DNA from: Escherichia phage vB_EcoM_Goslar
Length of the DNA: 64,000 bases
Sequence record: NC_048170.1
Reading direction: 5' to 3' (one strand)
This document shows positions 3,292 through 63,808 of this stretch, piece after piece. The translations under genes and the position numbers were made by a program. The first letter of the stretch is position 1; each line of letters begins with the position of its first letter. The notes beneath the pieces are model-generated. The model made no database searches and was not told the DNA's origin. It saw nothing but the letters and a program-made list of their open reading frames with translations.

Positions 3292-3618
3292 TTAATGCAG
3301 TTGCTTCTTAAAACCTAATTTAAGAAGCGTCATTCTCTTGTCGATGGTATCTAATGCTTCCAGCAAGGATTCACGCTGTTCTTTCGTAAGCATATCGACG
3401 CGTAGACGTTCGTTAATTTCTGCTTTAAGCTGTATAGGAAGGGTTTGTGTAAGTATGCTATCAGCCTCCATCTCGTAACTATTTTTCGGTATGGGTAATG
3501 CTTCAGTAACACCAGTGAGATAAAAACCGATAGTGGTTACTCGTTCATCCATTGCTTCTAACAGTTCAGAACTTACTTCATCCACGATAGTCCTCCGTAT
3601 TAGGGTGGGCGTACCCAC
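3292..3618 (-). CDS. hypothetical protein
   Basis: 108-aa ORF between a GC hairpin (3603-3620) and thyA. Confidence 0.4.
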   Translation of the reverse strand: MGTPTLIRRTIVDEVSSELLEAMDERVTTIGFYLTGVTEALPIPKNSYEMEADSILTQTLPIQLKAEINERLRVDMLTKEQRESLLEALDTIDKRMTLLKLGFKKQLH

Positions 3619-3632
3619 CCTCAGTTGTTAAT

Positions 3633-4652
3633 TTACACCGCCACCTTAGCCTTGATAGCGGGGTGTGATTGATATCCGACGAACACAAAGTCTTCGTAAC
3701 GGTAATCCGTAATACTTTCTGGTTTACGTACGATTGTTAGCTTCGGTAATGGATACGGCTCACGACTAAGTTGTTCTTTAACCTGTTCGAAGTGGTTGTG
3801 ATAGATGTGACAATCTCCACCCGTCCACACGAACTCACCAACGTCCATATTCAGCTGTTGGGCAAGCATGTGTGTCAGCAGTGAATATGATGCGATGTTA
3901 AAGGGAGTCCCTAAAACTGTGTCCTGTGATCTTGCGAGTAGCATGCATGATAAGGCGCGTGTCGGTACGTTGTGTGTATTCAACCAAAGTTCCGTTTCAC
4001 TGTGTCGTACATCATCCGTAACCCACTGGGTTCTTAATACGTCGTTGCGTTGAACATAATCAACACGTTCATCGATCGTGAGCTCGTGGGTATAGAACTG
4101 ATAGAAACTGTGGCATGCGGGAAGCGCCATATCGTCTAAATCACCTACGTTCCATGCGCTAACGATGATCCGTCGAGAATCAGGGTCTTCTTTAAGCTGA
4201 CGCATCACGTTTGCGATTTGGTCGTGGTGTTTAACATACAAGAGATGTTTGACCATACCGGCGTCAACAACACCGCAATACTCATAGCCGCGTTGCATCA
4301 ACTCACGAGTACGTTCTGTATCGTGCGGAACAACCACTTTGTAGTCGATCCATTCCCGCCATTGTTTGCCGTAAATCGGTCCTAGATTCCCTTCTTCGTC
4401 AGCCCATTCATTCCAGATACGAACACCGTTATCTTGAAGATAAGCAACGTTTGTGTCGCCGTTAAGAAACCAGAGCAGTTCGTGGATAACGCTCTTAAGG
4501 TGAATCTTCTTGGTGGTTACCAGCGGGAATCCTTTCTTCAAGTCAAAACGCATCTGACGCCCGAATACGGAACGGGTCCCGGTGCCTGTACGATCAGCTT
4601 TATCGCGACCGTTATCCATGATGTCTTGCAAAAGGTCCAAATACTGTTTCAT
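3633..4652 (-). CDS. thyA: thymidylate synthase
   Basis: Translation carries the ThyA core: [29 protein letters not shown] (catalytic Cys), [32 protein letters not shown]. Two insertions relative to bacterial ThyA. Confidence 0.9.
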
Positions 4653-4852
4653 TTTAATCCTCTAAGTGTTTCAAGTAGTTCCTGAAATTTATAACGATAT
4701 TTAGGATCGCTTAACGTGTAGCAGCAACCATGTAACACGTTATACGCGTAATCGGCTTGTAAACCACGAACCTTCGGATCCAATGATAGATTCAACGGTG
4801 CATCATCAAAAATCCACGCTTCAATGTTCTTCTTGGATTCCTTCGTTAACAT
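4649..4852 (-). CDS. hypothetical protein
   Basis: 67-aa ORF, 4-nt overlap with thyA start. Confidence 0.35.
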
Positions 4853-5017
4853 CGTTTTTCACCTCGTCGTAAAAGTAAATAGAGTTTTGTCGAGACGCCC
4901 TAATTACTTACAACGTCGGTTCTCCCGGCTTCAGAGAATTCTTAAAATCCGTTAGTTTTGATAGATAGGGTAAGACGGCATAAAAGCCTCCCATTACGGG
5001 AGGCTCTATTAATCAGC

Positions 5018-5566
5018 TTATTTCACAAGAACAGCGAATTCGAGAACATGAATAGCTTCATCGTCCATCGGATTTGTCGTGGTATAACCGACGAAGCAAT
5101 AGCCCATATCCACGATAAACTCTCTAAGTTTATCGATGACTGATGCCCCGATACGATCGTCAACAGACAGGCGACATTTACGGGTTATGTTTTGCCCGCG
5201 AGGAACGCCAGCTAACACGGATAGGAAATGTACGATCCGGTTATTGGTTGCGAACTGCTTGAAATCATCGTAGTGCTTAAGGTCTTTCATCGCAGACTCT
5301 ACCGTCATACGACGACCAGGCGACACATACTCAGAATAAGAATAAGCTGCAATCGTGCGGCGGTCTTCAGTGAGGTAAGTATTCCCTTCGGGATGATAGC
5401 TCTCGATTGTTCCGTCTTCATAAGCGACGGTCACAACAGGTGCGCCGTACTCGTCGCGACCGAAATCAATTTTACATTTATCCGAAAGCGGTAGAACCGT
5501 GCAAGGTTTTGCGTTGTTCTCATCAGGGAGATCGTAACCACTCATCATTTTCAAGAACATAGACAT
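5018..5566 (-). CDS. hypothetical protein, member of a tandem paralog family
   Basis: 182 aa; shares NNAKP, TIAAYSYS and a C-terminal ...VLVK with 5653-6186, and its C-terminal half with 6263-6562. Confidence 0.5.
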   Translation of the reverse strand: MSMFLKMMSGYDLPDENNAKPCTVLPLSDKCKIDFGRDEYGAPVVTVAYEDGTIESYHPEGNTYLTEDRRTIAAYSYSEYVSPGRRMTVESAMKDLKHYDDFKQFATNNRIVHFLSVLAGVPRGQNITRKCRLSVDDRIGASVIDKLREFIVDMGYCFVGYTTTNPMDDEAIHVLEFAVLVK

Positions 5567-5652
5567 AATAGAACCTCATGATAATAGATAATAGAAATGA
5601 TAGATAGTACAACAAATTGAGGGGGTATTATCCCACCCCCTCGTAGGGATTA

Positions 5653-6186: not shown

Positions 6187-6262
6187 GTTTATTCCTTAGT
6201 AGTCCTAGTAGTAGTAGTATTGAGGAATTTCACCTCATTAGATAATCAACTTTGGTAATGTT

Positions 6263-6562: not shown

Positions 6563-6626
6563 GTTAACCTCAACACGAACATAACCCTCCTCCAACCCGT
6601 AAGGGAAGGAGGAGGTGATTATGCTG

Positions 6627-6941: not shown

Positions 6942-6992
6942 CTTCTTTCCTTTAATAAACGATCATCGTCATATTCATTGCGCAGGACGCTA

Positions 6993-8246: not shown

Positions 8247-8266
8247 ATTAGTTCAGTTCTGGTTTA

Positions 8267-12656: not shown

Positions 12657-12932
12657 TTAAAAATCCACACCGCGACCCGTCATCGACGAAGGAACCGCGC
12701 GATAATAGAAGTAGATGTAATGGTCACGATGGCTAAAATAGTTTTTGCAAGCATAGAACTCTCCAGATCCAATGAATGATTTAATACGTGTAACTTGAGG
12801 GTGTCGTGCGATTAACGCCCGTATAACGATTTCCATTTGGTGTGCGCTCAAGCCTGGTCGAGCGGCAACATGATAATGAAGCTCCCTAAGAAATTGTTTC
12901 CATGGGTCGGGGTGTGTCGATGATCGAGACAT
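12657..12932 (-). CDS. hypothetical protein
   Basis: 91-aa ORF. Confidence 0.4.
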   Translation of the reverse strand: MSRSSTHPDPWKQFLRELHYHVAARPGLSAHQMEIVIRALIARHPQVTRIKSFIGSGEFYACKNYFSHRDHYIYFYYRAVPSSMTGRGVDF

Positions 12933-12970
12933 CTTTATCTCCTTAACAGGTGCTGGTAACGCAGCATAAA

Positions 12971-12988
12971 CCCTCCCCGAAGGGAGGG
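12971..12988 (-). terminator. GC hairpin CCCTCCCC-GAA-GGGAGGG followed on the minus-sense RNA by UUUAUG
   Basis: Inverted repeat read directly; lies between two co-directional minus genes. Confidence 0.4.
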
Positions 12989-12998
12989 CGGTTGGCGA

Positions 12999-14785: not shown

Positions 14786-14809
14786 CACGTAAGTAATATA
14801 GCCGTGAAA
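14786..14809 (-). promoter_or_regulatory. conserved promoter-like motif, copy 1
   Basis: Plus-strand cacgtaagtaatatagccgtgaaa, identical 24-mer at 38055-38078; minus-sense contains TATATTAC; 42 nt upstream of the minus gene start at 14744. Confidence 0.45.
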
Positions 14810-14888
14810 GGATTTGTGTTGGTCCGTCTCGATGCCCATCGTATTTTATGGATTGTCGAATGACGTCATTTTAAGGGACATCCCCGGC

Positions 14889-14922
14889 CTCCTCCCCAGG
14901 AAAGGTGTGGGGAGGAGTTTTT
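14889..14922 (+). terminator. intrinsic-terminator-like hairpin with U tract, plus orientation
   Basis: 10-bp stem ctcctcccca/tggggaggag, 9-nt loop, then TTTTTAT; sits 30 nt upstream of the helicase ATG with no plus-strand gene upstream. Confidence 0.4.
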
Positions 14923-14952
14923 ATCATACATTCTATTAAATCGAGCGCGATT

Positions 14953-17038: not shown

Positions 17039-17068
17039 GAAGCTCTGCCTGACATCAGGCAGAGCTTC
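17039..17068 (+). terminator. intrinsic terminator of the helicase gene
   Basis: Long inverted repeat gaagctctgcctga/tcaggcagagcttc just after the stop, followed by a T-rich stretch. Confidence 0.55.
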
Positions 17069-18585: not shown

Positions 18586-18607
18586 AAAAAAAAATAGTTA
18601 GCATATC

Positions 18608-18639
18608 TTCCTCCCTACCCATAACGGGCGGGGAGGAAG
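18608..18639. terminator. GC hairpin between convergent genes
   Basis: cttcctccc ... gggaggaag inverted repeat followed by TTTAT; preceded by an A11 run. Confidence 0.45.
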
Positions 18640-18656
18640 GTTTATGACGATTTAAT

Positions 18657-18995: not shown

Positions 18996-19912
18996 TCATT
19001 TTCTCCATTCTTATCTTGGTCGCAATCACACTCTTCGACGTCTTTCTTACTTAAACGTAAGACACTGAGTGCAGCACGCTTAAGTTCTTGCAACGCGCTT
19101 TTCAGCTGACCTTCTTCATCGAAATCAAAATACTTCTCGTTGTAGCTTAATGCTGGAATCATATTTACGAGAGGTTCGATGGCGGGCATCAGCATTTCAA
19201 TGACGACCTTAGGATCAACAAAGCGTTCGAACCCTTCAGGAAGTTTGCTCGCTACAACCTTATCGTTTTTGATGTAGAATTTGTTCTTGAACAAATCGTC
19301 AAGAATAGCATTCTCTTCATCCGTACGTTTTGCGTGAGGACGATCGATCATCTGCACAAACACATCGCTCAACGCTTCAGGCAACGTCGGATTTTCACGA
19401 AGATAAGTTCCGGCCGGAATTTCAATATCGATCTTCGTCCACTCAACAACCTGGTGGTCTCGCGTATAGATGACGTCAACTTCCCATGCCAGGCCATCAG
19501 CGCTTTCTACGGTGTAACGTGTTTTCGCCTGGCCTTCAGGAGCCATGCGCTCGATCGCGTCAAACATCTCGACTGGGATTTCGACTTCGCTTTCCGTTGC
19601 ATCACCTGGACCACGATACACCTTCGTGGTCATGATGTATTTCGGCTCTTCGTTATCGATCTGTATCGCACGTGCGCGCACCTGACCTTTCACACCACCA
19701 ACGGCTGTGTTATCAAACAACCATTGATGTTGCACCATATGTTCGATTTTTGATGCGACTTGACGAAGACGTTCAACACCGTCTTCAGCCAGTTTACCAA
19801 AGAAGACCAGCTCACGTTCCTGCTGTGTCTCACCACTTAACATCATTAGATTGGCGATTTGTTTCACGCCTCTTACTTGTGACATACATGCTCCGGTTAT
19901 AAGGGCCTGCAT
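18992..19912 (-). CDS. hypothetical protein
   Basis: 306-aa ORF, 4-nt overlap with downstream gene. Confidence 0.45.
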   Translation of the reverse strand: MQALITGACMSQVRGVKQIANLMMLSGETQQERELVFFGKLAEDGVERLRQVASKIEHMVQHQWLFDNTAVGGVKGQVRARAIQIDNEEPKYIMTTKVYRGPGDATESEVEIPVEMFDAIERMAPEGQAKTRYTVESADGLAWEVDVIYTRDHQVVEWTKIDIEIPAGTYLRENPTLPEALSDVFVQMIDRPHAKRTDEENAILDDLFKNKFYIKNDKVVASKLPEGFERFVDPKVVIEMLMPAIEPLVNMIPALSYNEKYFDFDEEGQLKSALQELKRAALSVLRLSKKDVEECDCDQDKNGENE

Positions 19913-19953
19913 CTAGGCCCTTCATTGATTTTTGATTCCACCAAACGCTATCG

Positions 19954-24162: not shown

Positions 24163-24319
24163 AATCTCATTTCCTCTTATACGTTAGGATAGATGACATG
24201 TTTGATATACGTTGCCTTTGCATATATTGCTTTATTTCCGTCAGAAATAACGGAAAATAAAAACAACGACATAGTTCCCTCCCACCTCCACATGGGAGAG
24301 GGAGGGCTATTCGTGTTTA

Positions 24320-25055: not shown

Positions 25056-25174
25056 ACCAGGGATCCTCTTTTAAGTGTTCACATTCTAGTGTTAAGCAGT
25101 TAAAATAAACCGTCCCTTTAATCAGCATAAACATCCTCCTCCCACCACATGGGCAGGAGGAGGCGTAATATGCA

Positions 25175-25585
25175 TCAGAAAGGAGGACGATCTTTAAATT
25201 CTAACAACGTGTCTTCGAAGCAAGCGATGAGTTCAGACTGTAATTCGGTACGGCCTTGTTCACCGAAGAGTTCCAGCAACATTAACCCCCGAGCGGTCTT
25301 CGTAGCAACCTCTTCGCAGATGCGGAGATCGTGAACTTCATCATCGTTGACATCTTTACGCAACTGTGCCGCAATGGGCTTAAGATTGCCGTTTTCATCG
25401 TGTTCGTCACGAAATGCATCATAAGCCGCATCGATGTTCGCGATCCGTGTCAATCCTTCAGAATCCCGCCAATCTCGATATAATCCAAGAAGACGATTAT
25501 GATTCTTCGTTTTGACGTTCGGTGCTGGAAGGTTGCGCAACAGATGTGGCGTAATCATTGCTATCACGCTATCCGAATGATTCAT
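25175..25585 (-). CDS. hypothetical protein
   Basis: 136-aa ORF. Confidence 0.4.
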   Translation of the reverse strand: MNHSDSVIAMITPHLLRNLPAPNVKTKNHNRLLGLYRDWRDSEGLTRIANIDAAYDAFRDEHDENGNLKPIAAQLRKDVNDDEVHDLRICEEVATKTARGLMLLELFGEQGRTELQSELIACFEDTLLEFKDRPPF

Positions 25586-27765: not shown

Positions 27766-27796
27766 AGGACTTCCTATTATCGAATTGAGGTACGTC

Positions 27797-28150
27797 ATGT
27801 CTAACACGCCCCTGAACGACTTTCTTAAGACAAACCCCGATGACCTCATCCACGATCTTGATTTCAGGAACGTTGTTGAGATGCATCTGGAATATTTCAA
27901 AAATGCCGGACTGGTCTCTACGATAGACATACCACCCGAACGCGCCTACGAATTCGATGGTAACTTTTATGGATTGTGTCGTGTTCTGCTCGGCGAGGGT
28001 AGCGAACCAATGCACTGGATCACCCTGAGACTCAATGGTTATCGCGACCCTACGGAATACACCGCCGATGTTCTAACCATGAAGATTGTCGATACAAGCG
28101 CAATCAACACATTAAAACAACAGTACCGCACAATCCACTACAGCGCTTAA
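27797..28150 (+). CDS. hypothetical protein
   Basis: ATG 27797 with GAGGT 6 nt upstream; 117 aa; followed by GC hairpin. Confidence 0.4.
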   Translation: MSNTPLNDFLKTNPDDLIHDLDFRNVVEMHLEYFKNAGLVSTIDIPPERAYEFDGNFYGLCRVLLGEGSEPMHWITLRLNGYRDPTEYTADVLTMKIVDTSAINTLKQQYRTIHYSA

Positions 28151-28155
28151 GATAA

Positions 28156-28184
28156 CCCTCCCGCAACGTAAGGCGTAGGGAGGG
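28156..28184. terminator. GC hairpin between convergent genes
   Basis: ccctccc ... gggaggg inverted repeat followed by catttatg. Confidence 0.45.
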
Positions 28185-28215
28185 CATTTATGCCGTCGTT
28201 CGATGACTTAATACA

Positions 28216-29496: not shown

Positions 29497-29551
29497 ATTG
29501 TATTTCCTTTTCTTTACGTCAACGGTCCCCCTACAACAGGGGACCTATGGA

Positions 29552-32726: not shown

Positions 32727-32930
32727 AACAACCTCTTTTCGCGGTTCCCTGTTAAAACGTCTTCTGTGACGTCTACCACAAAGGTAATATAAGCGTGAAT
32801 AATTTTGGATTCCGGCTGAGTTATCGCTCAGCATGCAAGGCATCCCGCCGAAGCGAGACACCTTGCACTAACGGAAAATATTCGCGTTACCTTCTGAATC
32901 GAAGACTCAGAATGCGATGCTAAAGCATTA

Positions 32931-37408: not shown

Positions 37409-37503
37409 TTCATAGAGTGGTGGAAATTCGTAGAAAGTTACAAAAATAAAAAAGAATGGGCAGCCCCTCCCCACCCGAAGGTAGGGAGGGACCGCAAATA
37501 TAC

Positions 37504-38054: not shown

Positions 38055-38078
38055 CACGTAAGTAATATAGCCGTGAAA
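38055..38078 (-). promoter_or_regulatory. conserved promoter-like motif, copy 2
   Basis: Identical 24-mer to 14786-14809; 66 nt upstream of the minus gene start at 37989. Confidence 0.45.
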
Positions 38079-38087
38079 AATGTTGGA

Positions 38088-38924
38088 TTAACGTGTTCTC
38101 CTATCACGATGCGTATACGACTGAAGACCGATGTCCATATGCGGTAACGTCAGCGTCTGCCAGATCTGTCGTGCGTAACGATCGAGCGTATGATCATCAG
38201 TAACACAATCGACGGGTTCGATGAGGTGAGTCGTATACTGGCTTTTCTCAGAGAAAGGTTCGATGTTAGCTGTATCTCCTAATCCGCTTTTCACCGTGAA
38301 GACAAGACGTGTGACTACCATCGCCTTATGCTGCTGTTCATTATAGCGAAGGCTACGATATACCGCATAGCTCCCTCCTTTTAGGCTTCGGGTATAACGA
38401 AGGTCGGAGGTCGTCTCGGAAATCTGATACAGCATCCAGTCCAACGTATCACGCCAGTACGCATCATCCACATCAGGAACTGTAATACCATACCGCGTAG
38501 GCAGCAGTTCTAAAAGCAATTTATAAAGTCCGCGACGCAAGCCATGCTCTTCTGTTTCCGATAAACCGTTTCCAACATAACGTGAAATACGCGTACGTAA
38601 ATACGTACGGATGAACATATTCGCCATCAGTGTTTTCACTCTGCTACTGGTATCCTCAAAGCGATCAACGCTGAAACTCGTTTCAATCAGCCGTCCATTA
38701 AAATACAATGCGGCAACATACATCGCATTACTGCTATCACGTTCAATGTTTAAACGTCCGCAGATATTGGCTGCGTCGTTCATGGTAAATTCTAACTTAT
38801 CGTGTTCGATACGATAGATAATATCCTCTTGGGTTGCTAGGCTCGCAATACGACGATAGCCCGGAGAAGTACGTTTTACACTCATGATTGTCCTCGTTTT
38901 CAATTTTAAGATTGCATGCGGCAT
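38088..38924 (-). CDS. hypothetical protein
   Basis: 278-aa ORF. Confidence 0.45.
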   Translation of the reverse strand: MPHAILKLKTRTIMSVKRTSPGYRRIASLATQEDIIYRIEHDKLEFTMNDAANICGRLNIERDSSNAMYVAALYFNGRLIETSFSVDRFEDTSSRVKTLMANMFIRTYLRTRISRYVGNGLSETEEHGLRRGLYKLLLELLPTRYGITVPDVDDAYWRDTLDWMLYQISETTSDLRYTRSLKGGSYAVYRSLRYNEQQHKAMVVTRLVFTVKSGLGDTANIEPFSEKSQYTTHLIEPVDCVTDDHTLDRYARQIWQTLTLPHMDIGLQSYTHRDRRTR

Positions 38925-38967
38925 AAACCCTCCCCGCCTTATGCAGGGAGGGTAGCCATTAAATGGA

Positions 38968-42910: not shown

Positions 42911-42952
42911 GGGGTATCTCCTACAAATGAAAAAGAACGTTAGGACGTATAA

Positions 42953-42976
42953 GGGAGGGAGGTTGCCCTCCCTCCC
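42953..42976 (-). terminator. GC hairpin downstream of the 631-aa gene
   Basis: Perfect 10-bp inverted repeat gggagggagg/cctccctccc with 4-nt loop. Confidence 0.5.
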
Positions 42977-44898: not shown

Positions 44899-44964
44899 TT
44901 GGGATTCCTCTTTTCTTAAACTTTATTAAATGACGTCATTGAATCAGCTTCTACTCGCTCATTC

Positions 44965-44988
44965 ACCTAGGTAATATAACCCTGAAAT
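44965..44988 (-). promoter_or_regulatory. conserved promoter-like motif, copy 3
   Basis: cacctaggtaatataaccctgaaa, 20/24 identical to copies 1 and 2; 67 nt upstream of the gene start at 44898. Confidence 0.4.
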
Positions 44989-45152: not shown

Positions 45153-46247
45153 ATGTTTCGTGTTTTAAATAACCTCCCGCGAACATCATCGGGTGTGCAA
45201 CCCGTCCCTCAGAAAGACTATCTAATACGCGAAGTTCAAAGAAACCTACAGACAATCCAGAACCACTATCAAGGTTTTACCTTCGCGGTTCAGAGCGATC
45301 ACATCCTTGCGTTGCTGCTCGCACAGCTCCCTATGAGATACGACATCTCAGTACAAACTTACTACGACATGATTCTCGATCTTACCCCAGAATTGGGTAA
45401 TCGTGTCAAGTTGACAACATCAAGATACGCGGGTAAGTTATTCGACGGTGCTTTCTATCCGGGACTGCACGAAGCTATTATCGCAACCGGTGAAAGTCGT
45501 CTTATTTCACGTGATGTTCTTGACAACTGGCGTAATTGGTCACCAGTTAGAATCGTGACGCACCCATACGCAAATCTTCGTTACATTCCTCTTCACCAAA
45601 AGCAGGTTGAAGAAGGACGAGGTTTTGCGGTCATTATGGTTGATGTGCCTTTGTTAGCGCTACAGTATCGAATGTGGTCTTTGGTCATGGGTCATAACGT
45701 CGACGGTAAATGGGTGGTTAAAGAACCGGTTACAAGCTTCCTTGCGAGTTTTCCGTTGGTTAACGCATTATACTCACACAACGATGTTGTTATACGCAAT
45801 CGTTGTTTGTGGGTATCACCGGCTAAGAATCCACTCAAATCACCAATTTACGTTAACGACCTTGATAACGTATTCAGCCAAGTCGTTCTGTCCGTACAGC
45901 ATCATTTATTACGAAGAAGACGAAGCTACACCGATATGCTTAAACAGATACCGAGTTTATACGGGGATCAGTACCAAGCAACCCGAATGGGTTACACCGT
46001 CGATCTTCGACAAACACGATGGGCAAGGGATCTGGGTTGTCTGTCATTATGGCAACAACTCGTCACATTGCAAAACGTATCTGAAAGCGTCGGGTTCAGC
46101 AGTCAAATCGATAACGACCTGTACCGTGCTGCTGACCGTAGTCTAAAAGAAGGTAACTGGGAGTCCTCTCCGTTACCTGGCGATTTAAGACGTGAAGTTA
46201 TCGCACAGGTTGCCGACCTCTTAAAAATTCTTCCCGCCGGTGCATAA
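45153..46247 (+). CDS. hypothetical protein
   Basis: 364-aa plus-strand ORF followed by a GC hairpin (about 46256-46300). Confidence 0.5.
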   Translation: MFRVLNNLPRTSSGVQPVPQKDYLIREVQRNLQTIQNHYQGFTFAVQSDHILALLLAQLPMRYDISVQTYYDMILDLTPELGNRVKLTTSRYAGKLFDGAFYPGLHEAIIATGESRLISRDVLDNWRNWSPVRIVTHPYANLRYIPLHQKQVEEGRGFAVIMVDVPLLALQYRMWSLVMGHNVDGKWVVKEPVTSFLASFPLVNALYSHNDVVIRNRCLWVSPAKNPLKSPIYVNDLDNVFSQVVLSVQHHLLRRRRSYTDMLKQIPSLYGDQYQATRMGYTVDLRQTRWARDLGCLSLWQQLVTLQNVSESVGFSSQIDNDLYRAADRSLKEGNWESSPLPGDLRREVIAQVADLLKILPAGA

Positions 46248-46313
46248 TCACCCCCCTCTTCCCTTGCATCCTCCCAACCCGTAAGGGAAGGGAGGATGGG
46301 GTGGTGGGTTATG

Positions 46314-48467
46314 TTATTCTGCGGTTTCTTGCTTCGGTAAATAACTTGCTGCAATGTCTTGGGCTAACAATGTATTGTTTTTATTCGAGATGAAAATACC
46401 GTAACTTTCCATTAACGCGTAATACGAACGAACGAGCGTAGAGATCAATCGACGAATATCCATACCTTGAATAAAGATATCAGGAAGCCCGGAGGCTTCG
46501 ATCACCGGTAATGGTATCGTTAAGTTGCTTATCGTTTTCTTATCGTTACGTACAATCCAATCACGGAAACGTTGTTGTAACCCTTTATCCTCCCAGGAAT
46601 CAATCCAATCGTTAAGAAGCGTTTTGTTCTTCGTCGCCAACGGCACACGAACCCCAACATAGGGCGGTTCCTGGCAATGGCCGTACGATTGAGCAAACAC
46701 CTCTTCCCACATATCGTAAGACTGTTTCGTTACCGCAACATGTGGCTTCACTTTAACACGTGTTAAGAAATCGGGATCACCTCGTTTCATGGACTCAACG
46801 ATTTCGTTTTCTAACGAGATAATATCATCAAGAACCAATCGAATGCTGATCTTCTCGTTACGTAACAGCTTATCCATGATACCACACATCATGCGTTCAA
46901 CACGTTTGACGATCATTTTTGGTGCTGACGCGTCACGCATAACCGGACCTTTCAATTCCAGCTTCGGTGGGTTGATAGGAACCCCCTCACGCATGGTCAT
47001 GTAACCGTAATAGTTTTTACCCATCGAGGTTAACGACAGAATCAAGAACATATATTCGTTCTTCATTTCCATCACGTACATATGCTCTTTCGCTACACCG
47101 ATATTACCAGAACACATCGCCATCAGATGAACCGTAATCTGCGTAACCAGATAGATAAGCGTATTTGCTAAGCGCGTCGAAACTGGATTGATCTCCATAT
47201 TTCCAAATCGCCACTGCACCCACTCCTGGCAGGTAAACACCGTCGAGTCGGTATCAGACAACACACCCACTTCACGGATTGCTGATGGGAAAGCATAAAC
47301 GCCAGCCGGTTGGTTCTCGGTACGCCAGAATGCCATAATCAAATCTGCGTAGCTTTGAATACGCTGTAGCATTAATTTTGTCGTCGCCGCAGTAAGACGA
47401 TAACCAAGTTCATTTCCTTTTTCTAGCGCTACGTAAATCGCTTCCCCGTTCAAGAACTCCGTGCATTGTGCTGTAATCCAAGCGACCGTGTTGTTATCCA
47501 TGGAAGCAATAATGGCTTTAGCCTCTTCCATCGTTTCAACAGGTTCGGATGCCAGCTCACATAACGAGTCAAGAAAATCTCGAACAAATTCAGGATTAAG
47601 CTCACGTAACGAGTACAGGTTATTGCTGTACATGTAGCAGGCACGTTCCAACGGTGTTAAACCGGTAATTAACTCCCGGATAGTCAGTTCTTTCTCTGGG
47701 TCGAAAGTATATCGATGCAAGCATTTCGATACGTTAGCCCAAACCTCTTCCGGCGTAGGGTAATGTAGTTTGTATTTTACCATTACCTGCTCAATGGCTT
47801 TGCGATCGCTGTTACGAACAATACTTACGATGTTTTCAATTGCGATATCACAATCGTAATAATGGAAATTGCCCGCAAGGAAGCGTTCGTTGTTCGCATT
47901 GGCTGAACCTGAAGCACAGCGACATGTTGTCGTTAAACTTGGATGCGCGATCGGATTATAAAAAGGGTTAAACTTGGACGCCTGGGTTCCTGACAAACTG
48001 TTGTTGTCTAACTTGGTGTTGGTTTGTCGTTTATCGTGTAACTCAGCTTCGTCTTTACGTCCGTGTGCTTGCGCTATCGACATTTGTTTCTTTTGTTTCT
48101 TACGCAACTTACCGTTTTCAACCGCGAAGTCGCTTAGCACACTGGAACGTGTTTCACGTGGATAACAGTTAGCCCATACCGGCGTGATAATTAAATTATT
48201 TTCTTTAATATCATTGAAGTATTGGCTGAACTTGATGACTTCTTTTTCACGATTTCCTTCGGTACGCTGTGTTAATACAAGACAGTCGGGATCAACCATC
48301 CCGTATTTTCCACCGGGACGAACCGTATCAAGGACAAACTGCAACGCTTCCTGCTGTGATATCCCACGCATGCGCATTAAGAACAGGGTATAATCCTGTA
48401 CCGCTTCTTTGGTCATATCCAACGTACGACCATATCCGTTTTCATCGTAAAAGAACGGATTTTCCAT
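46314..48467 (-). CDS. hypothetical large protein
   Basis: 717-aa ORF; contains VLSDTDS, superficially like a polymerase motif C, but no other polymerase motifs confirmed. Confidence 0.5.
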   Translation of the reverse strand: MENPFFYDENGYGRTLDMTKEAVQDYTLFLMRMRGISQQEALQFVLDTVRPGGKYGMVDPDCLVLTQRTEGNREKEVIKFSQYFNDIKENNLIITPVWANCYPRETRSSVLSDFAVENGKLRKKQKKQMSIAQAHGRKDEAELHDKRQTNTKLDNNSLSGTQASKFNPFYNPIAHPSLTTTCRCASGSANANNERFLAGNFHYYDCDIAIENIVSIVRNSDRKAIEQVMVKYKLHYPTPEEVWANVSKCLHRYTFDPEKELTIRELITGLTPLERACYMYSNNLYSLRELNPEFVRDFLDSLCELASEPVETMEEAKAIIASMDNNTVAWITAQCTEFLNGEAIYVALEKGNELGYRLTAATTKLMLQRIQSYADLIMAFWRTENQPAGVYAFPSAIREVGVLSDTDSTVFTCQEWVQWRFGNMEINPVSTRLANTLIYLVTQITVHLMAMCSGNIGVAKEHMYVMEMKNEYMFLILSLTSMGKNYYGYMTMREGVPINPPKLELKGPVMRDASAPKMIVKRVERMMCGIMDKLLRNEKISIRLVLDDIISLENEIVESMKRGDPDFLTRVKVKPHVAVTKQSYDMWEEVFAQSYGHCQEPPYVGVRVPLATKNKTLLNDWIDSWEDKGLQQRFRDWIVRNDKKTISNLTIPLPVIEASGLPDIFIQGMDIRRLISTLVRSYYALMESYGIFISNKNNTLLAQDIAASYLPKQETAE

Positions 48468-48530
48468 AAATCCTCCAAAAGTTATTTAGTCTGTCTACAT
48501 CATCTCGTATATCTGTTAAAAAAGAAGGAC

Positions 48531-48570
48531 GGCATAAAAAAGAACCGATCCAGCCGAAGCCAGATCGGTT
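48531..48570 (-). terminator. rho-independent terminator, minus orientation
   Basis: Stem aaccgatc/gatcggtt; minus-sense RNA continues UCUUUUUUAUGCC. Confidence 0.55.
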
Positions 48571-52564: not shown

Positions 52565-52617
52565 GCTTTCTCCTACACGGCATAAAAGCCTGCCCCGAAG
52601 GACAGGCTCGATAGAAC

Positions 52618-53900: not shown

Positions 53901-54743
53901 ATGGGTGCTATTGACTACAGTGTAGATCGTATCTGTCGTACAATACCGGCAGACATCCTACAGTATTGCTATATCGATCGCTACGACTGGCGTAATCGCT
54001 ATCCTCGTTCCGTAGAAGACATCATTACCGATTGGGTAATCCGTAAACGGGTTATCGGCGACATCGATATCTACGGGGGACTACAAACCGTTATTCCCCT
54101 TGATGATGCCGGTGTCACTATCGAAGAAGTCACCATCAACTGTTATGTTTTCCACATTCCGTTGGAAGCCACGCAGGGACGTTATATCACGTCTGCATTA
54201 TCCATTATCTCAGGGAGCGTGAACAACTACGGAATAAACTATAACGGGCAATGGGGCGCTTTCAACCAAACCCAATTTCAACGTCAGCTTTGTGGGTGGA
54301 ACCCCGCAAGCAACACGTTACAGCAAGGGATGAACGCGTTCGGTCCCATGAACGTTCTTAGTACAGCCAACGTTGATATCATCGCACCTAACACCATCAT
54401 GGTGAACAACGTCACGCCGGTACAATTTCCCCTGAGCCTACGCTGTTTCCTTGCCCACGATCCGGAACTTACCAACCTCAGCATGGAGGTTTGGAACGAC
54501 TTCTACAAACTCTGTTTATACGCCACACAAAGTGACATCTACAACAGAACCGTTATCCGTCTCGATAGAGGTGTTACAGCACAAGGACAAGAAGTCGGTG
54601 CATTCAAGGAATACATCGATCGCTTTGCCGATGCTGAAAACACATATCAGGAATTCCTGAACGAAACGTGGGCTGGCGTTGCTGCCTGGAACGATCCACA
54701 AACTAAACGTCGCGCCATTCGACTACAAACCGGTTACTTCTGA
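53901..54743 (+). CDS. hypothetical protein
   Basis: 280-aa plus-strand ORF followed by hairpin plus T tract. Confidence 0.45.
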   Translation: MGAIDYSVDRICRTIPADILQYCYIDRYDWRNRYPRSVEDIITDWVIRKRVIGDIDIYGGLQTVIPLDDAGVTIEEVTINCYVFHIPLEATQGRYITSALSIISGSVNNYGINYNGQWGAFNQTQFQRQLCGWNPASNTLQQGMNAFGPMNVLSTANVDIIAPNTIMVNNVTPVQFPLSLRCFLAHDPELTNLSMEVWNDFYKLCLYATQSDIYNRTVIRLDRGVTAQGQEVGAFKEYIDRFADAENTYQEFLNETWAGVAAWNDPQTKRRAIRLQTGYF

Positions 54744-55351
54744 TTAACGACAGCTTCCTCCCTCGGCGTTTTCGAGGGAGGTATTTGCCGTTTGAACACT
54801 TTCAGCATGTTCGCAAAATCAGCAGCAATAATACAGGCCGAGCTTGATAGCTTATTGCTGAAAATGAGATCGTCCGGTAAACAATCGAACTGAATACCGT
54901 ATTGCGTCTTTGTCTCATCAACGATCAATGATGGTGTCGATCTTGTCTTCGCGATGTCGGTGATATACAAACGTAAAAATAATTCACCGTCTTCGCTATC
55001 CATAAAACGATAAGCGTTACCAGAAAACGCAGCATGCGGCGTAACGATAAATTGAACACGATCGTCGGTCGGATGGATATTTAACCAACGTTCGATATCA
55101 TTACTACTCACATTTCGCATATTTACTACGGTAAAAGCAAATAGCGTATCGTGATGTTTGGAATAATGCAGCACATACGCCGCATCTTTCTTTCCGTGAA
55201 TCCCTTCAATGTATTCTATTGTCGTATAGCCGGATTTATATAGCTTTACTTGCGGTTTATCACTCATCATAACAACCCTTCCCGTTTCATCGCGGCACGC
55301 ATACTTGCGTAAAGCGCATTCTTCATTGCACCCGGACGCAACGGATAACAA
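54734..55351 (-). CDS. hypothetical protein
   Basis: 205-aa ORF. Confidence 0.4.
   Translation of the reverse strand: MLSVASGCNEECALRKYACRDETGRVVMMSDKPQVKLYKSGYTTIEYIEGIHGKKDAAYVLHYSKHHDTLFAFTVVNMRNVSSNDIERWLNIHPTDDRVQFIVTPHAAFSGNAYRFMDSEDGELFLRLYITDIAKTRSTPSLIVDETKTQYGIQFDCLPDDLIFSNKLSSSACIIAADFANMLKVFKRQIPPSKTPREEAVVNQK
54758..54781 (+). terminator. hairpin terminator of the plus-strand gene
   Basis: 9-bp stem cctccctcg/cgagggagg followed by TATTTG; overlaps the last codons of the convergent minus ORF. Confidence 0.45.
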
Positions 55352-57806: not shown

Positions 57807-58061
57807 GATAGGAATCCTTAGTATGTTTGATATGTTGTTTAATTGACATATTAAGTTTAAAAGAGGTTATGTTTTACGTAATGTTAATAACGTATTCTTA
57901 TCTCTATTAAGTTATGTTCTATCTAAAGATAGTAAACAGATATAATGCTCCCCACCTCCCCATTCTCCCAAGTAATACTGGCCTACCGGCCCTCTCCTTT
58001 TTAAGGGAGAGAGTAAGCATTCAGTATTGCTCAAATGAATAAGCAAAACAGTATAAACTTA

Positions 58062-58085
58062 CCGTCTCGAGACAACTCGAGACGG
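58062..58085. terminator. perfect 10-bp hairpin ccgtctcgag-acaa-ctcgagacgg
   Basis: Inverted repeat read directly, downstream of minus gene 58115-58468. Confidence 0.4.
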
Positions 58086-58114
58086 CGTAGTAGTATCTGT
58101 TTATCTCTTTTATG

Positions 58115-59052: not shown

Positions 59053-59600
59053 CTTGTAATCCTTAATTTACCTGAATGAATTATCGTTGATGGGTCCACG
59101 ACGCGACCATATTTCGCGTTACGTAATACACGATGCCCAAAGAAGTCAGCGGTTTCCAAAACAACCGTATAACAACCCAGCTGATGTTGATGTCCCCAAA
59201 ACCGTTCAATGGGAATCCAGCAGGGCGACATGCCTTTGTGTCGCCAATCCGTAACACAGCCGAATTCAGCAAACTGTTCAGTAAACCACTCGTCAATGTC
59301 GGTATCCGTAAAGAGAAACACGTGGTTTTTAACCAGATAAGCGAACCCAGGATAAAAAAGCTGAGGGTCATCTGGGTCACGGAGATAAACACGAAGTTTG
59401 TCTAGCGTACCCTCGACAACGATCGTATCGGGTAATCCCGGCGGCGTGAACCGAAGTTGGAAGTTATCCTCGTTTGCCGAGGCGTTAACCAAATACCCCA
59501 ATTGAAGGGGCCGATGCAATTCGAAAAGGTTAAACGTTAATGCATATTCGATATACTCTAATCCTATATTCATGTCTGACCTATGTGGTATGGACGGCAT
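59049..59600 (-). CDS. hypothetical protein
   Basis: 183-aa ORF, 4-nt overlap with downstream gene. Confidence 0.45.
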   Translation of the reverse strand: MPSIPHRSDMNIGLEYIEYALTFNLFELHRPLQLGYLVNASANEDNFQLRFTPPGLPDTIVVEGTLDKLRVYLRDPDDPQLFYPGFAYLVKNHVFLFTDTDIDEWFTEQFAEFGCVTDWRHKGMSPCWIPIERFWGHQHQLGCYTVVLETADFFGHRVLRNAKYGRVVDPSTIIHSGKLRITR

Positions 59601-59705
59601 TGCATTGCCTTCCGCGAGTGTAATCAGGAAGGTAATGTAGGTTTATTTTAATCTCCATTTCGCGATGATATGACAGTCTTTATTACGTTTACCATCTGAG
59701 GGAGC

Positions 59706-60950
59706 ATGCTCATGTCTTCTATTTTACAGGTGTTTAATGCGCATGCGGAAGGCATTGACATCGACGAGTATTTTGTTAATCAGGTTATCCGTTACGCGAC
59801 ACGCTTCCGTACGCAAGACCAAGAACACATGCGTTTTTTCGGTGGGGTTCTGTTAGGTGTACAGAAAATCCGATTCACAACAAGACATAACGATACATGG
59901 TTTTCAGACGTCTTGATGATGGATGAAGAAAGCTTACGACGCGATTTGAGTAAACTACCCTTCTACAATACGCAGACCAACCGTGTTGCCTCAAACGCCT
60001 TTAACCTAAGTTGCTGTTGGTTGCTTTATGCGATCTTCCACAGCAAACAAATCAAAAAAGAAAAGGTTCGTGAAGCCGGGATGCTTGCAGCAATGCAAGT
60101 CCTCCATTATAAATTCATTTGCGGTCTGGTAGCACGACGTTATCCTTATAACGCTGATCCGGCTATCGCTATTAAAGCGTACGATGAGTTAACCCTCAAA
60201 TCAGGCATCAAGCGCATGAATAGCTGGAATGAGTACATCGACGAACGCTGTAATGCCATCATTGCGCGTAATAGTACACATTTCAGTCGTTGGTCAACCC
60301 TGGAACCTGATAGCGTCGCCGAACGTTTTGTGCGTGATGTGAATACCGGAATCCGTAAGGTTATCAACCGTATCACCGATACGTACTACGCGATGTACGA
60401 AGAAGGTAAGAAGATAGGCACGTCTTCTCAAACTGTAGAGTTAGACGATGGTCTCGCTGTCCGCGATATTAAACGCAACGAAACCACTTATCGTCAATAT
60501 CTGTTCGAAATCGCTTATGACCGAACGAGTTTCGTTAAACGCGAACTCATGGTCGTCATCCTTGACGTACACCATACTACCAATCTTTTATCCCTTGAGC
60601 GAGCGTTAAGCTATATCAGCGCTAACGTAGAACGACCGACAAGAGACGGAAAACAGGTCTCTCAGATGTTGCGGCTTGTAATGGAGCATGCTATCGAGTA
60701 TATCATCTTGAATAAGGTCGATATGCGCGATCTTACGTTCTTATTCTACATGCGTAACGTGTACACGTCTAACCGCACTAGCAACCCGAAACTGTTAGAA
60801 CTGCGTAAAATTGGCTCTGAAGTCATTAAGAAAGCAACCAATGCGAGAAATGACGCTGAGGCTGCGGCGACACGCACCGGTGTCTTTCTGTATATCCTGC
60901 TTCGTGTGTTTAGCCGTAACTATTACGTTCGACGTGCGATGTCACGTTAA
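59706..60950 (+). CDS. hypothetical protein
   Basis: 414-aa plus-strand ORF. Confidence 0.45.
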   Translation: MLMSSILQVFNAHAEGIDIDEYFVNQVIRYATRFRTQDQEHMRFFGGVLLGVQKIRFTTRHNDTWFSDVLMMDEESLRRDLSKLPFYNTQTNRVASNAFNLSCCWLLYAIFHSKQIKKEKVREAGMLAAMQVLHYKFICGLVARRYPYNADPAIAIKAYDELTLKSGIKRMNSWNEYIDERCNAIIARNSTHFSRWSTLEPDSVAERFVRDVNTGIRKVINRITDTYYAMYEEGKKIGTSSQTVELDDGLAVRDIKRNETTYRQYLFEIAYDRTSFVKRELMVVILDVHHTTNLLSLERALSYISANVERPTRDGKQVSQMLRLVMEHAIEYIILNKVDMRDLTFLFYMRNVYTSNRTSNPKLLELRKIGSEVIKKATNARNDAEAAATRTGVFLYILLRVFSRNYYVRRAMSR

Positions 60951-61143
60951 CAATGTAACGGTAAAACTTTACTGACGTTGGTTATTATTTGAAGCATAGG
61001 GCTTCACCCAGGAGTACCATCCCTTTAAGTCGTTTGTCCTCTCCTGGTTAACTGTCGTTCTCTCACAGTGCTCGACAGACCAAAAATGCTCAGGCCTCAT
61101 AGCCTCCTCTGGGAATGGAACCCAGAGGAGGACTATGTTTGCC

Positions 61144-61464
61144 TTAAAATTCAATGCGACCTTTTGTCGTAAACAATACACCTCTTTGCCAACAGAAAAG
61201 ATCCTCCGATTGAGCGCAAACACGAATACCCGCATCGAATAGATGTTTTGTTCTAGCGCTTAAACAATCAGGATCTTCTACATACAACAGAAGACGTTGG
61301 CATTTATTTTGAATGCGTTCGACAAGGATGTTCTTATCGCTTAAAATAAAATGCGCGTTATCTGTTAAGTTATCGTCGGTTTCCAGCTGCTTGACAAGTT
61401 TGATTAAAATACGTAATTGCTCAAGTGTGTCATGATCAAGTGAATCACCCATGGCGTACCTCAA
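61144..61464 (-). CDS. hypothetical protein
   Basis: 106-aa ORF immediately downstream of the terminase gene. Confidence 0.4.
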   Translation of the reverse strand: MRYAMGDSLDHDTLEQLRILIKLVKQLETDDNLTDNAHFILSDKNILVERIQNKCQRLLLYVEDPDCLSARTKHLFDAGIRVCAQSEDLFCWQRGVLFTTKGRIEF

Positions 61465-61537
61465 CGTTATACGTCGTTTGTATTATAATACGCTATCGTC
61501 TCCCCGCCTGTATTAACGGGGAGTCTGCAAACTACTC

Positions 61538-63769
61538 TTAGAAAAAACCGCCCGGACGGTATTGACCCATCGTCATCCACGCATTACGAGAAATATTCCG
61601 TTCATTCGAAGAGCGGCTTATTTGACGATAAGTATTCGCTCGTTCCTCCCTTGCTTTCGTGATCATCGCATCAATAGAAACAGCCGCTGAATCTTCCCCA
61701 CGTATTTTTCCTTTATACGTAAGAAGCTCTGCCTCCAATCGATCCAAGATAAGGCCGTTGGTTTCGGTCTTAAGCAACTCATAGATTTCAGCAACGCGTT
61801 GACGAAGCTTCGCCTGCTGTTGGTTAAGATAAGCTTCATACGGATCGATTTCACCCGTCACAGATGCCGGTAAACGACTCATGACTTTAAGCGGATCGAT
61901 ACCATAATGAATCTGTTTCTTAGCGCGCTTGATGAACCACATCGCTAACATCCAGGCGAACGTCATGTCGTCGTGCATTCCATCCTGGTGATCGACACGC
62001 CCATCTTTGATAACCAATCCAAGGATCTCGGAACACAACATCTTATCACGTAATTGCCCGCGGGTTTCTACAATACCTTCCATCAAGATGTCGGAATACA
62101 ACTCCATACGTTTGCGTGCATCCGTTGTGAAGCCCAAATGCCGTTTACGTTGAGCATACCAACTTTCATCACGCATGCTCAATGGTAATTTCAGGTCTTC
62201 GAACATCGCTGGGTTATCAGCATGTCTGTCCACAATTGTGTTGTATACGCGTTTGAATACGTCGATGCCCGCTTGTCTCAGGAACTCTTCAATTGCGTCT
62301 AACAACATGATTGCGCTGCTTTTACGTTCAGGAATCAACGTAACGTTCTTAAAACGCATCATGAAGTTGGCCATCCAACGAGCAAAAGAAAGCAAGCTCA
62401 GTTTATTAAAACGTCCTGTCGCAACAACTTCTGCTGTTTCTACATCCACCATCACCAAACCGATAGCGTCACGACCTATTGCATCGCTGGTGTCTAAACC
62501 AGCAACCACCTTATTGTTCTGCATGTATGTCTCGATTTGACCTCGAGGTATATACCAGTTAATGCAGTAGCCTTCAGGTGAGATCTCGATGTGGTCGATT
62601 TCACGTTGTCCTGCCATGATCATCTCAACCATCTCAGCGGTTAACGGGCTTTCTGCTGAACCGTTGGTCCAGATGTTCATGTAGTCGCGGTCTTTCTGAA
62701 GTTTATCACCTTCCGTTTCGTTCATGGTTTTTGCTAACCATTCATCACTGAATCCCAACTGAGCATGGTTCCATTGTGCCCCGATCCTGACGGTCGCTTT
62801 GCTGAGCTCGCACGGTACGTTGTTCAATACCGTCTGATGCAGATGCTTTTCGTTACGGCAGTCAAAGAAACTTTCAGAGAACGGCGCGGAACGCATGAAA
62901 ACTTCATAAGCCCATTTGCCTTCGCGTTTATCCAATTCACCTGCTGTTGTCGTATAGATGATACTTGTCAGGTCGCCGTTGCTTAATGCTTCATCGCGTG
63001 CCGCACCCATCGCACCGATACCAGCAGGAACAATAATTTCGATGTATTTCGTAAACGCGGTTTCGTCGCTATGGAATAGCGGGGTTGTTAGACCACGGCC
63101 GATGTTTGTTGCTTGTTTCTTATCCGAACGTGGAATCTTTACCGATAACTTGTTCTTGAAACGTGTGTAGGTTACGTTCTCTTTGTTCGATGAATCCCGA
63201 CTATCCAGCGTCCAGAGATACGCAGGTAACAGATCGCGTATACTACGCACGTCTTCTACCGTTTTCGTACGGGCGTCACCGTCTTTTGTTAATTGAATAA
63301 CCTCGGTGTTTCGACTACGAACATAGGTTAGATAACAGAACAGTCCTAACATGGTCATGGATTTACCGGTCTGACGTATCTGTATCTGATACCAGTTCGT
63401 TCGGGTAAATATCCCCCAGAGCATCGGAATGTTACCGCGGTTAGCACGGAATGAAATTTTGTTATCACCCGCTTTAGCCGGAACACGCATCACTTCACGG
63501 AAGAAGTACCATGGATTAAGATAGCATTCCGCACTGATCATCTGAATCTGTTCTGACGTCAAATTCGGTGCGTGGGGATCAACACCAATCAATCTTGGGT
63601 TTAATAACGCCATGAAAAACGCAGAGTTCCGGACACCGAATTCACGACGATACAAGATCGCTAAATCACGCCAACTTGTGTTTGTTGTTTCCCAGTGTGG
63701 AACAGCCTGAGGAAAATAATCCCAATCTTCCTCAAACAGGATGATTTTCTTCGGATCGACAATCGACAT
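61538..63769 (-). CDS. terminase large subunit
   Basis: Walker A-like IQIRQTGKS, Walker B-like LFHSDETAF, C-terminal acidic nuclease-type motifs (LVMVDVETAE, DHQDGMHDDMTFAW). Confidence 0.6.
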   Translation of the reverse strand: MSIVDPKKIILFEEDWDYFPQAVPHWETTNTSWRDLAILYRREFGVRNSAFFMALLNPRLIGVDPHAPNLTSEQIQMISAECYLNPWYFFREVMRVPAKAGDNKISFRANRGNIPMLWGIFTRTNWYQIQIRQTGKSMTMLGLFCYLTYVRSRNTEVIQLTKDGDARTKTVEDVRSIRDLLPAYLWTLDSRDSSNKENVTYTRFKNKLSVKIPRSDKKQATNIGRGLTTPLFHSDETAFTKYIEIIVPAGIGAMGAARDEALSNGDLTSIIYTTTAGELDKREGKWAYEVFMRSAPFSESFFDCRNEKHLHQTVLNNVPCELSKATVRIGAQWNHAQLGFSDEWLAKTMNETEGDKLQKDRDYMNIWTNGSAESPLTAEMVEMIMAGQREIDHIEISPEGYCINWYIPRGQIETYMQNNKVVAGLDTSDAIGRDAIGLVMVDVETAEVVATGRFNKLSLLSFARWMANFMMRFKNVTLIPERKSSAIMLLDAIEEFLRQAGIDVFKRVYNTIVDRHADNPAMFEDLKLPLSMRDESWYAQRKRHLGFTTDARKRMELYSDILMEGIVETRGQLRDKMLCSEILGLVIKDGRVDHQDGMHDDMTFAWMLAMWFIKRAKKQIHYGIDPLKVMSRLPASVTGEIDPYEAYLNQQQAKLRQRVAEIYELLKTETNGLILDRLEAELLTYKGKIRGEDSAAVSIDAMITKAREERANTYRQISRSSNERNISRNAWMTMGQYRPGGFF

Positions 63770-63780
63770 ATAAACTCCTC

Positions 63781-63808
63781 CGATGGAGGGTGCCGGGCAC
63801 CCTCCATC
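63781..63808 (-). other. 14-bp-stem GC hairpin immediately 5' of the terminase RBS
   Basis: cgatggagggtgcc/ggcaccctccatcg inverted repeat; minus-sense RNA continues GGAGGAGUUUAUAUG. Confidence 0.4.

Follow-up and report, generated by a model that had tools for sequence, protein, structure and literature searches.

Most intrinsic terminators of phage phiKZ share the consensus BCCYCCCCHWWDGGGRRGGBYTTATKYYGT, with 61 mapped sites (Putzeys et al. 2024, PMC10914365), and motif A of the 201phi2-1 terminators (n = 59) resembles the phiKZ motif (PMC11512511). Eight of the 201phi2-1 terminators have been validated in vivo, where they lowered expression of a downstream reporter (PMC11512511). Here we describe a family of GC-rich intergenic hairpins in Escherichia phage vB_EcoM_Goslar (NC_048170.1), within a stretch of 64,000 nucleotides that we call the window. 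We consider it very likely that these elements are factor-independent transcription terminators of the phiKZ type, in a chimallivirus equipped with split multisubunit RNA polymerases of its own.

The likeness to the phiKZ and 201phi2-1 terminators lies in a C-rich 5' arm, a G-rich 3' arm, a short loop and a TTAT-K-Y-Y-G-T tail, and in their placement: intergenic after stop codons, bidirectional at convergent genes, with some copies antisense or in 5' untranslated regions (5'-UTRs), in chimallivirus genomes that encode their own RNA polymerases. Stem type, tail type, intergenic placement and split RNA polymerases are all found in the window, and the design recurs in 50 kb of phiKZ, where the major head gene, for instance, is followed by GCCCTCCC-ttcg-GGGAGGGC-TTTATGTTGT. 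The window phage is nevertheless very distant from both phages, its nuclear shell protein (chimallin) being about 24% identical. Its loops are in many cases longer, reaching 16 nt, and contain a second inner stem, its tail is GC-richer (TTATGCCG, against TTATGTTG in phiKZ), and its elements are known from sequence alone, whereas RNA 3' ends have been mapped in the other two. The published 30-nt consensus, with its fixed 4-nt loop, has one match in the window (4975-5004, two mismatches, 0 expected) and by its fixed length cannot match longer-loop members; most of the others differ from it chiefly in having longer, often two-tier loops.

We took phiKZ end positions from the supplementary tables of the bioRxiv version, covering 43 (T034-T076) of 133 transcription termination sites (TTSs). 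A hairpin followed by TAT stands at 24 of the 43, with the mapped 3' end -5 to +3 nt from the base after TAT, mostly at 0 or +1; in 18 of the 24 the position after TAT is occupied by G. Five examples follow.

T057: mapped TTS 120629, predicted G 120627
T060: mapped TTS 133099, predicted G 133097
T059, minus strand: mapped TTS 133067, predicted G 133066
T065: mapped TTS 147179, predicted G 147178
T046: mapped TTS 101370, predicted G 101369

By analogy, we infer that the 3'-end formation of phiKZ and 201phi2-1 also occurs in the window phage. The nascent RNA would fold into a GC-rich hairpin, in this lineage usually with a C/U-rich 5' arm (CCCUCCC) and a G/A-rich 3' arm (GGGAGGG); the tail U(U)UAUG-Y-Y-G would follow after 0-5 nt, and the transcript would end at, or a few nucleotides from, the UAU-G junction. 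Elements with a tail on both sides, at all convergent pairs and some co-directional sites, would stop transcription both ways. The hairpin-plus-TTATG design has already been mapped in phiKZ, and the finding is real but mostly ordinary.

Hairpins and tails in the window

The inverted repeats given as examples in a sequence-only reading of the window are present as described at all 11 coordinates. Exact matches to CCCTCC-N3-30-GGAGGG number 5, with 0.01 expected, and perfect stems of at least 7 bp and at least 60% GC number 30, compared with 7.4 +/- 2.7 in dinucleotide shuffles. Among those stems, 12 have a pyrimidine-rich (CCCTCC-type) 5' arm (0.2 expected) and 5 a purine-rich one (0.13 expected). 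All copies of AGGGAGGG (7/7), CCTCCTCC (5/5) and TTATGCCG (5/5) window-wide are intergenic, and gaps account for about 8% of the window. For twelve elements the folding energy is -17 to -26 kcal/mol (z -2.3 to -5.6), with the tail left unpaired. An Rfam scan of the whole window gave 0 matches above the gathering threshold, and a tRNA scan of the window found nothing.

The same reading had placed such hairpins in nearly every intergenic gap, which is an overstatement, as a listed hairpin occurs in 22 of the 42 gaps of at least 25 nt. Its CCCTCCC/GGGAGGG family does describe about 15-18 elements of CCTCC/GGAGG type under relaxed criteria, one of which, at 42953, is reversed (GGGAGG...CCTCCC); the hairpins at 48543, 52586, 58061 and 29524 occupy equivalent positions and have unrelated stems. 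Co-directional and convergent placement was borne out, with hairpins in co-directional gaps and at all three convergent pairs (18607, 46267 and 61103), where TATG stands on both sides; two divergent gaps (14889 and 59608) also carry hairpins.

The TTTAT said to follow many hairpins is there, not as a plain T-tail but as part of a longer conserved T(T)TATG-Y-Y-G (Y, pyrimidine), within 0-5 nt of the stem on the transcribed strand. A descriptor scan with shuffles found 17 hairpins with TATG against 1.6 expected, and 8 with TTATGYYG against 0.05 expected. The tail TTTATGCCGT recurs at 4978, 38921, 48532 and 52580, and TTTATGCTG at 12964 and 25125. The base after TAT is G in 17 of 31 tails in the window and in 20 of 38 in phiKZ, and the position-frequency table is the same in both phages: T-4, T-3, A, T, G+1, Y, Y, G+4, then T-rich. 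The elements of the window are listed below.

4975..5007, minus strand: AGAGCCTCCCG-taa-TGGGAGGCTTT with tail TATGCCGT, between co-directional genes 5018-5566 and 4649-4852; -17.6 kcal/mol, z -5.1; the tail ATG opens an open reading frame (ORF) of 9 aa
6575..6626, minus strand: two-tier CCTCCTCC..CCC-ttac-GGG..GGAGGAGG with TTATG on both sides, GTTATGTTCG on the minus and TGATTATGCTG on the plus strand; -23.5 kcal/mol, z -4.4
12959..12989, minus strand: GCCCTCCC-ttcg-GGGAGGGT with TTATGCTGCGT; the tail ATG opens a 10 aa ORF, and the next gene's real start is 12932 with its own AAGGAG
14889..14929, plus strand: CTCCTCCCCA-9-TGGGGAGGAG with TTTTTATCATAC, in a divergent gap just upstream of a plus-strand helicase gene; a possible 5'-UTR terminator or attenuator
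18597..18651, both strands: bidirectional CTTCCTCCC..GGGAGGAAG between convergent genes, tails GTTTATGACG (plus) and ATATGCTAAC (minus); -26 kcal/mol, z -5.1
24267..24306, minus strand: CCCTCCCTCTCCCAT-gtgga-..GGTGGGAGGG with AACTATGTCG
25123..25176, minus strand: CCTCCTCCTGCC-catgt-GGTGGGAGGAGG with ATGTTTATGCTG, plus side CGTAATATGC; 12 pairs with G.U on the transcribed strand only, -21.6 against -16.9 kcal/mol
28145..28198: CCCTCCC-15-GGGAGGG, minus (sense) tail TTATCTTAAG, full tail CATTTATGCCGTCG on the antisense (plus) side
37441..37495, minus strand: 16-bp GCGGTCCCTCCCTACC-ttcg-GGTGGGGAGGGGCTGC, then CCATTCTTTTTTATTTTTG, a canonical-like T-run; -29.2 kcal/mol on the transcribed and -18.9 on the other strand
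38918..38953, minus strand: ACCCTCCCTGC-ataag-GCGGGGAGGGT with TTATGCCGC
42943..42976, minus strand: reverse-polarity GGGAGGGAGG-gcaa-CCTCCCTCCC with TTATACGTCC, directly after the chimallin gene; -23.8 kcal/mol, z -5.2
46239..46319, both strands: bidirectional two-tier CATCCTCCC..CCC-gtaa-GGG..GGGAGGATG, flanked by TTATG on either side; it separates convergent genes, of which the minus-strand one encodes DNA polymerase
48527..48570, minus strand: unrelated stem AACCGATCTGGC-ttcg-GCTGGATCGGTT with CTTTTTTATGCCGTCC; -18.3 kcal/mol, z -4.5
52576..52609, minus strand: unrelated stem GAGCCTGTCC-ttcg-GGGCAGGCTT with TTATGCCGTG; real start 52564 with its own AGGAG
54757..54794, plus strand: CCTCCCTCGG-cgttt-TCGAGGGAGG with TATTTGCCGTTTG, 14 nt past the stop of plus-strand gene 53901-54743 and overlapping the 3' end of a converging minus-strand gene
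58048..58086, minus strand: GCCGTCTCGAG-ttgt-CTCGAGACGGT with TAAGTTTATACTG; a weaker CTCTCC..GGAGAG hairpin, 57992-58011, shares the gap
59600..59653, plus strand: TTGCATTGCCTTCC-13-GGAAGGTAATGTAG with GTTTATTTTAATC, in a divergent gap upstream of plus-strand gene 59706-60950
61093..61141, both strands: bidirectional CCTCCTCTGGG-7-CCCAGAGGAGG, flanked by CTATG on either side, at a convergent gene pair; -23.4 kcal/mol, z -5.6
61500..61523, minus strand: CTCCCCGTT-aataca-GGCGGGGAG after the terminase gene, no TTAT tail, a weaker member
63781..63809, minus strand: 13-bp CGATGGAGGGTGC-ccg-GCACCCTCCATCG just upstream of the terminase gene; a separate downstream GAGGAG-TTTAT-ATG is a genuine Shine-Dalgarno (SD) sequence and start (743 aa ORF)
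29524..29545: intergenic GGTCCCC-8-GGGGACC, TATG immediately after on the plus side
3602..3621, minus strand: intergenic GC hairpin AGGGTGGG-tacg-CCCACCCT, no TTATG tail
5619-5642, 17039-17068 and 19901-19922: further hairpins without the tail

Two details of these elements can be noted here. The plus-strand hairpins at 14889-14929 and 59600-59653 have T-rich tails and lie just upstream of plus-strand genes. They recall the 5'-UTR terminators of phiKZ that yield short RNAs (e.g., T102; PMC10914365) and, by this analogy, may be attenuators or a source of small RNAs. The hairpins at 6586-6615 and 46267-46298 have a common inner segment, AACCCGTAAGGGAA. In L001, one of two related contigs described below, the inner segment of the 46267 copy (L001 8561-8672) is the exact reverse complement of the window version, which suggests loop inversion or a template switch within the hairpin.

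The tail across chimalliviruses

We ran the same hairpin-and-tail scan on 24-42 kb pieces of six further chimalliviruses, beside the window and phiKZ, and counted hairpin flanks with TATG.

Klebsiella phage Eowyn: 11, with 0.1-0.6 expected from shuffles
Erwinia phage Ea35-70: 9, with 0.1-0.6 expected
Proteus phage 10: 8, with about 0 expected
Burkholderia phage FLC9: 3, with about 0.2 expected
Ralstonia phage RSL2: 0, with about 0.2 expected
Bacillus phage AgentSmith: 0, with about 0.1 expected

In Eowyn, Ea35-70 and Proteus phage 10 the tails are typically T(T)TATGCCG, and a looser scan of RSL2 found isolated CCTTATGCCGTC and TTTTTTGCCGTC. Eowyn 5' arms are purine-rich in 12 cases and pyrimidine-rich in 1. 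Because stem polarity flips between lineages in this way, the tail is the family-wide invariant, with stem sequence and polarity varying by lineage, and CCCTCCC/GGGAGGG is a lineage habit common to the window phage and phiKZ. Hairpin and T(T)TATGCCG are common to Pseudomonas, Klebsiella, Erwinia and Proteus chimalliviruses and the window lineage. In the Ralstonia, Burkholderia and Bacillus relatives sampled, where T-runs are used, this combination is weak or missing.

The chimallin gene gives a fixed position at which to compare genomes. A strong hairpin follows its stop codon by 20-50 nt in all nine genomes (the window and 8 other chimalliviruses), and this recurrence at one position lends positional support to termination. 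There the hairpin leads into TTAT(G) in four of the genomes (the window, Eowyn, Ea35-70 and Proteus phage 10), into a canonical T-run in three (FLC9, RSL2 at 4043-4092 and Bacillus phage AgentSmith at ~21280-21330), and into neither in phiKZ and PhiPA3. RSL2 retains GCCGTC after its T-run (TTCTTTTTTGCCGTC).

Alternatives to termination

Like canonical Rho-independent terminators, the elements have a GC-rich hairpin followed at once by U residues, and phiKZ RNA ends a few nucleotides after TAT, roughly 4-8 nt past the stem (spacers 0-5 nt). Unlike them, the phiKZ-type elements, those of the window included, follow only 2-3 U with an invariant A-U-G and with G/C-rich bases, where a canonical terminator would have a U-run of 7-9 nt, and their sequence is conserved downstream of the release point. 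Most tails read TTTATGCC and fall short of the at least five T in the 8 nt after the stem that mark a canonical terminator. That A-U-G-Y-Y-G stays invariant in so poor a U-tract may mean that the phage polymerase assists in a sequence-specific way, in addition to any effect of a weak hybrid.

Several points weigh against termination by these elements. A generic scan for a hairpin plus T-run was not enriched (64 hits, ~55 expected over 60 kb) and picked up about 5 members, and for this reason we call the elements non-canonical. Hairpins at 3602, 5619, 19901 and 61500 have no tail, and those at 14889 and 59600 stand in divergent gaps upstream of genes, where an end-of-gene terminator is unexpected. 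Conservation and covariation had been proposed as a check; all hairpins are kept in L001 and L002, but covariation across these two contigs and the window was not significant, as 328 of 500 shuffles reached the observed value; sequences this close differ too little to support statistics. Finally, the case for termination in the window phage is one of homology, and long-read 3'-end mapping alone does not separate termination from trimming to a stable hairpin.

This last point bears on RNA processing or stability, in which transcription would read through and the ends would be made by nuclease cleavage or by exonucleases that trim the RNA as far as a protective hairpin. As a rule, 3' exonucleases are stopped by stable hairpins at the 3' end, long-read ends do not show how an end arose, and the U-tract is poor, all of which such a role could accommodate. 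It would not account for the reduced downstream reporter expression caused by eight such 201phi2-1 terminators in vivo (PMC11512511), nor for canonical terminators at the orthologous post-chimallin position in other lineages. In addition, the conserved G-Y-Y-G-T lies beyond the mapped RNA end, where trimming would not need it. We therefore regard processing as improbable, and nothing speaks for such a role except the general protection afforded by any hairpin at a 3' end. The sequence-only reading had proposed a mix of terminators and processing elements; its terminator part gains support through homology with the mapped phiKZ and 201phi2-1 terminators and through the T-run terminators at the post-chimallin position. 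Action on DNA, as cruciforms, protein-binding palindromes or mobile repeats, would fit elements that are inverted repeats and the inner segment that the 6586 and 46267 copies share and that is inverted in L001. When the 20 hairpins in co-directional gaps were folded as RNA, however, the transcribed strand was the more stable one in 14 cases and the less stable one in 3, and in another 3 the strands were equal, with a mean difference (transcribed minus other strand) of -2.1 kcal/mol (Wilcoxon p = 0.002; 14/17 informative). This gain arises because G.U pairs lengthen stems only on the transcribed strand, and the bias points to action at the RNA level. One pair of the 37465 stem runs C-G > U.G > U-A across the window, L001 and L002, with two further wobble changes, and all four substitutions keep pairing on the transcribed strand, an anecdotal pattern in three sequences. 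Since the G.U-dependent stability is confined to that strand, stem sequences differ, flanks outside the tail are unrelated, and the flanks examined show neither terminal repeats nor target duplications, we find a DNA-level role barely credible.

Two further explanations concern the ATG of the tail. SD-sequestering intercistronic hairpins are found in RNA phages and T4, and the window elements resemble them in pairing an SD-like GGAGG in a stem near an AUG. GGGAGGG-TTT-ATG has ideal SD-spacer-start geometry, and because of this resemblance we tested whether the 3' arm might be the SD sequence of the tail ATG, sequestered for coupling or repression, in line with the earlier suggestion that some 3' arms double as SD sequences. 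That AUG is not a start codon in the window elements. At nearly all sites it opens ORFs of just 3-31 aa, the real starts are found 20-130 nt downstream, each with an SD of its own (AAGGAG...ATG at 12932; AGGAG...ATG at 52564), and in the sole long-ORF case, ATG 38924, a 1-nt deletion in L002 closes the frame after 7 codons and keeps TATG. The same tail also follows stems without SD-like sequence (48543, 52586) and the reversed-polarity stems of Eowyn and Ea35-70, and the full tail is found antisense to genes at 28187 on the plus strand. Together with SD scoring of alternative starts, the short ORFs, separate SDs and L002 frame break led us to reject the tail ATG as a start codon; translational control is extremely unlikely, and in annotation ATGs right after GGGAGGG hairpins should not be called gene starts. 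The tail might instead be a promoter. The late-promoter core of the phiKZ non-virion polymerase is 5'-TATG-3' (-3 to +1), with G as +1; it is necessary and is bound by the beta-like subunit GP123. Terminator-promoter cassettes, in which one transcript stops and the next starts at the same spot, would fit this identity and the frequency with which G follows TAT in both phages, and two phiKZ transcription start sites (TSSs) do lie 10-20 nt after a TTS (TSS 145659 after TTS 145649; TSS 101390 after TTS 101370). Because TATG is this core, we checked the tail Gs, and the phiKZ TSS tables hold none in the 10-nt coordinate block around the 12 terminator-embedded TATGs checked; the two nearby TSSs use separate downstream sites. 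At the three convergent pairs of the window, as at phiKZ 125/126 and 129/130, TATG stands on both sides, and a promoter in such a place would yield nothing but antisense RNA. Promoters such as phiKZ P119L have no upstream hairpin, and published late-promoter logos show nothing conserved upstream of TATG. Cassettes of this kind are in our view unlikely, and the missing TSSs and the two-sided TATGs argue that the tail is a component of the terminator and not the promoter of the next gene.

Polymerases, promoters and the tail

Nearly all window genes are on the minus strand. PHROG profiles identify chimallin (43003-44898, minus strand), three split subunits of the RNA polymerase beta-like type (41639-42910, 25597-27930 and 21525-23531), a DNA polymerase (46314-48467) and the large terminase (61538-63769). 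The chimallin is 23-25% identical to any deposited chimallin and no DNA-level match to the window was found among the deposited phages searched, so the window appears to represent a deep lineage of chimalliviruses, the nucleus-forming jumbo phages. L001 and L002, two IMG/VR contigs, have 95-98% nucleotide identity to it.

Matches to sigma-70-like promoters are depleted in each 20-kb third of positions 1-60000 (21, 22 and 22, against 40, 34 and 37 expected), which fits a phage that makes no use of the host polymerase. A motif of about 30 nt, TTTCACGGC-TATATTAC-YTABGTGA, has four minus-strand copies (14793-14800, 32784-32791, 38062-38069 and 44971-44978), each upstream of a minus-strand gene, including chimallin and ORF 31140-32861, for which start-codon scoring suggests an actual start at 32726. 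By their sequence and position these copies look like candidate early (virion polymerase) promoters; TATATTAC by itself is not enriched (4 against 2.6 expected), although the flanks do align. The perfect palindrome AATGACGTCATT occurs at 14859-14870 and 44929-44940 (2 against 0.32 expected), both divergent intergenic sites close to a copy of the ~30-nt motif, and may be an operator or regulator site. Two non-coding stretches fold strongly on the transcribed strand: 41246-41638 (393 nt, -110 kcal/mol) and 27931-28155 (~225 nt), downstream of the 28156 hairpin. Neither has a listed ORF of at least 60 aa or an Rfam match.

The one new lead from this work is that terminator tail and late-promoter core are the same tetranucleotide, held in one register relative to the active site: in promoters RNA begins at the G, and in terminators it stops at the TAT-G junction. 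No paper that we found connects the tail of the terminators with this core. The string 'TATG' is in neither terminator paper (PMC10914365, PMC11512511), and the sole match in a literature search for the tail sequence was a PCR primer from Klebsiella jumbo phage Miami.

One tentative explanation, which we think possible though not probable, is that the elongating polymerase recognises TATG in its own bubble through the beta-like-lobe contact that it makes at promoters, on the non-template strand, and pauses at the UAU-G junction while the hairpin releases the RNA. Elemental pauses of E. coli RNA polymerase have the consensus G-10 Y-1 G+1, with a core recognition element. The tail is similar in its pyrimidine RNA 3' end and incoming G, and in the window and phiKZ it is G-rich about 10 nt upstream. 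The polymerase is a different one, however, and G-10 is not general, because the 3' arm is C-rich in Eowyn and Ea35-70. We know of no pausing measurements for chimallivirus polymerases. Were the pause model true, point changes in TATG would lower termination and abolish the UAU-G pause even with U content kept or raised.

As phiKZ-type terminators, the elements would mark the ends of transcription units in the window's chimallivirus lineage. The coincidence of tail and promoter core also touches a question that the literature leaves open, namely what beyond four bases defines recognition by the non-virion polymerase. If the pause model is true, one protein-DNA contact would serve both initiation and termination and compensate for the missing U-tract, and this would explain why the tail is conserved across lineages with chimallins ~24% identical while stems and polarity change.

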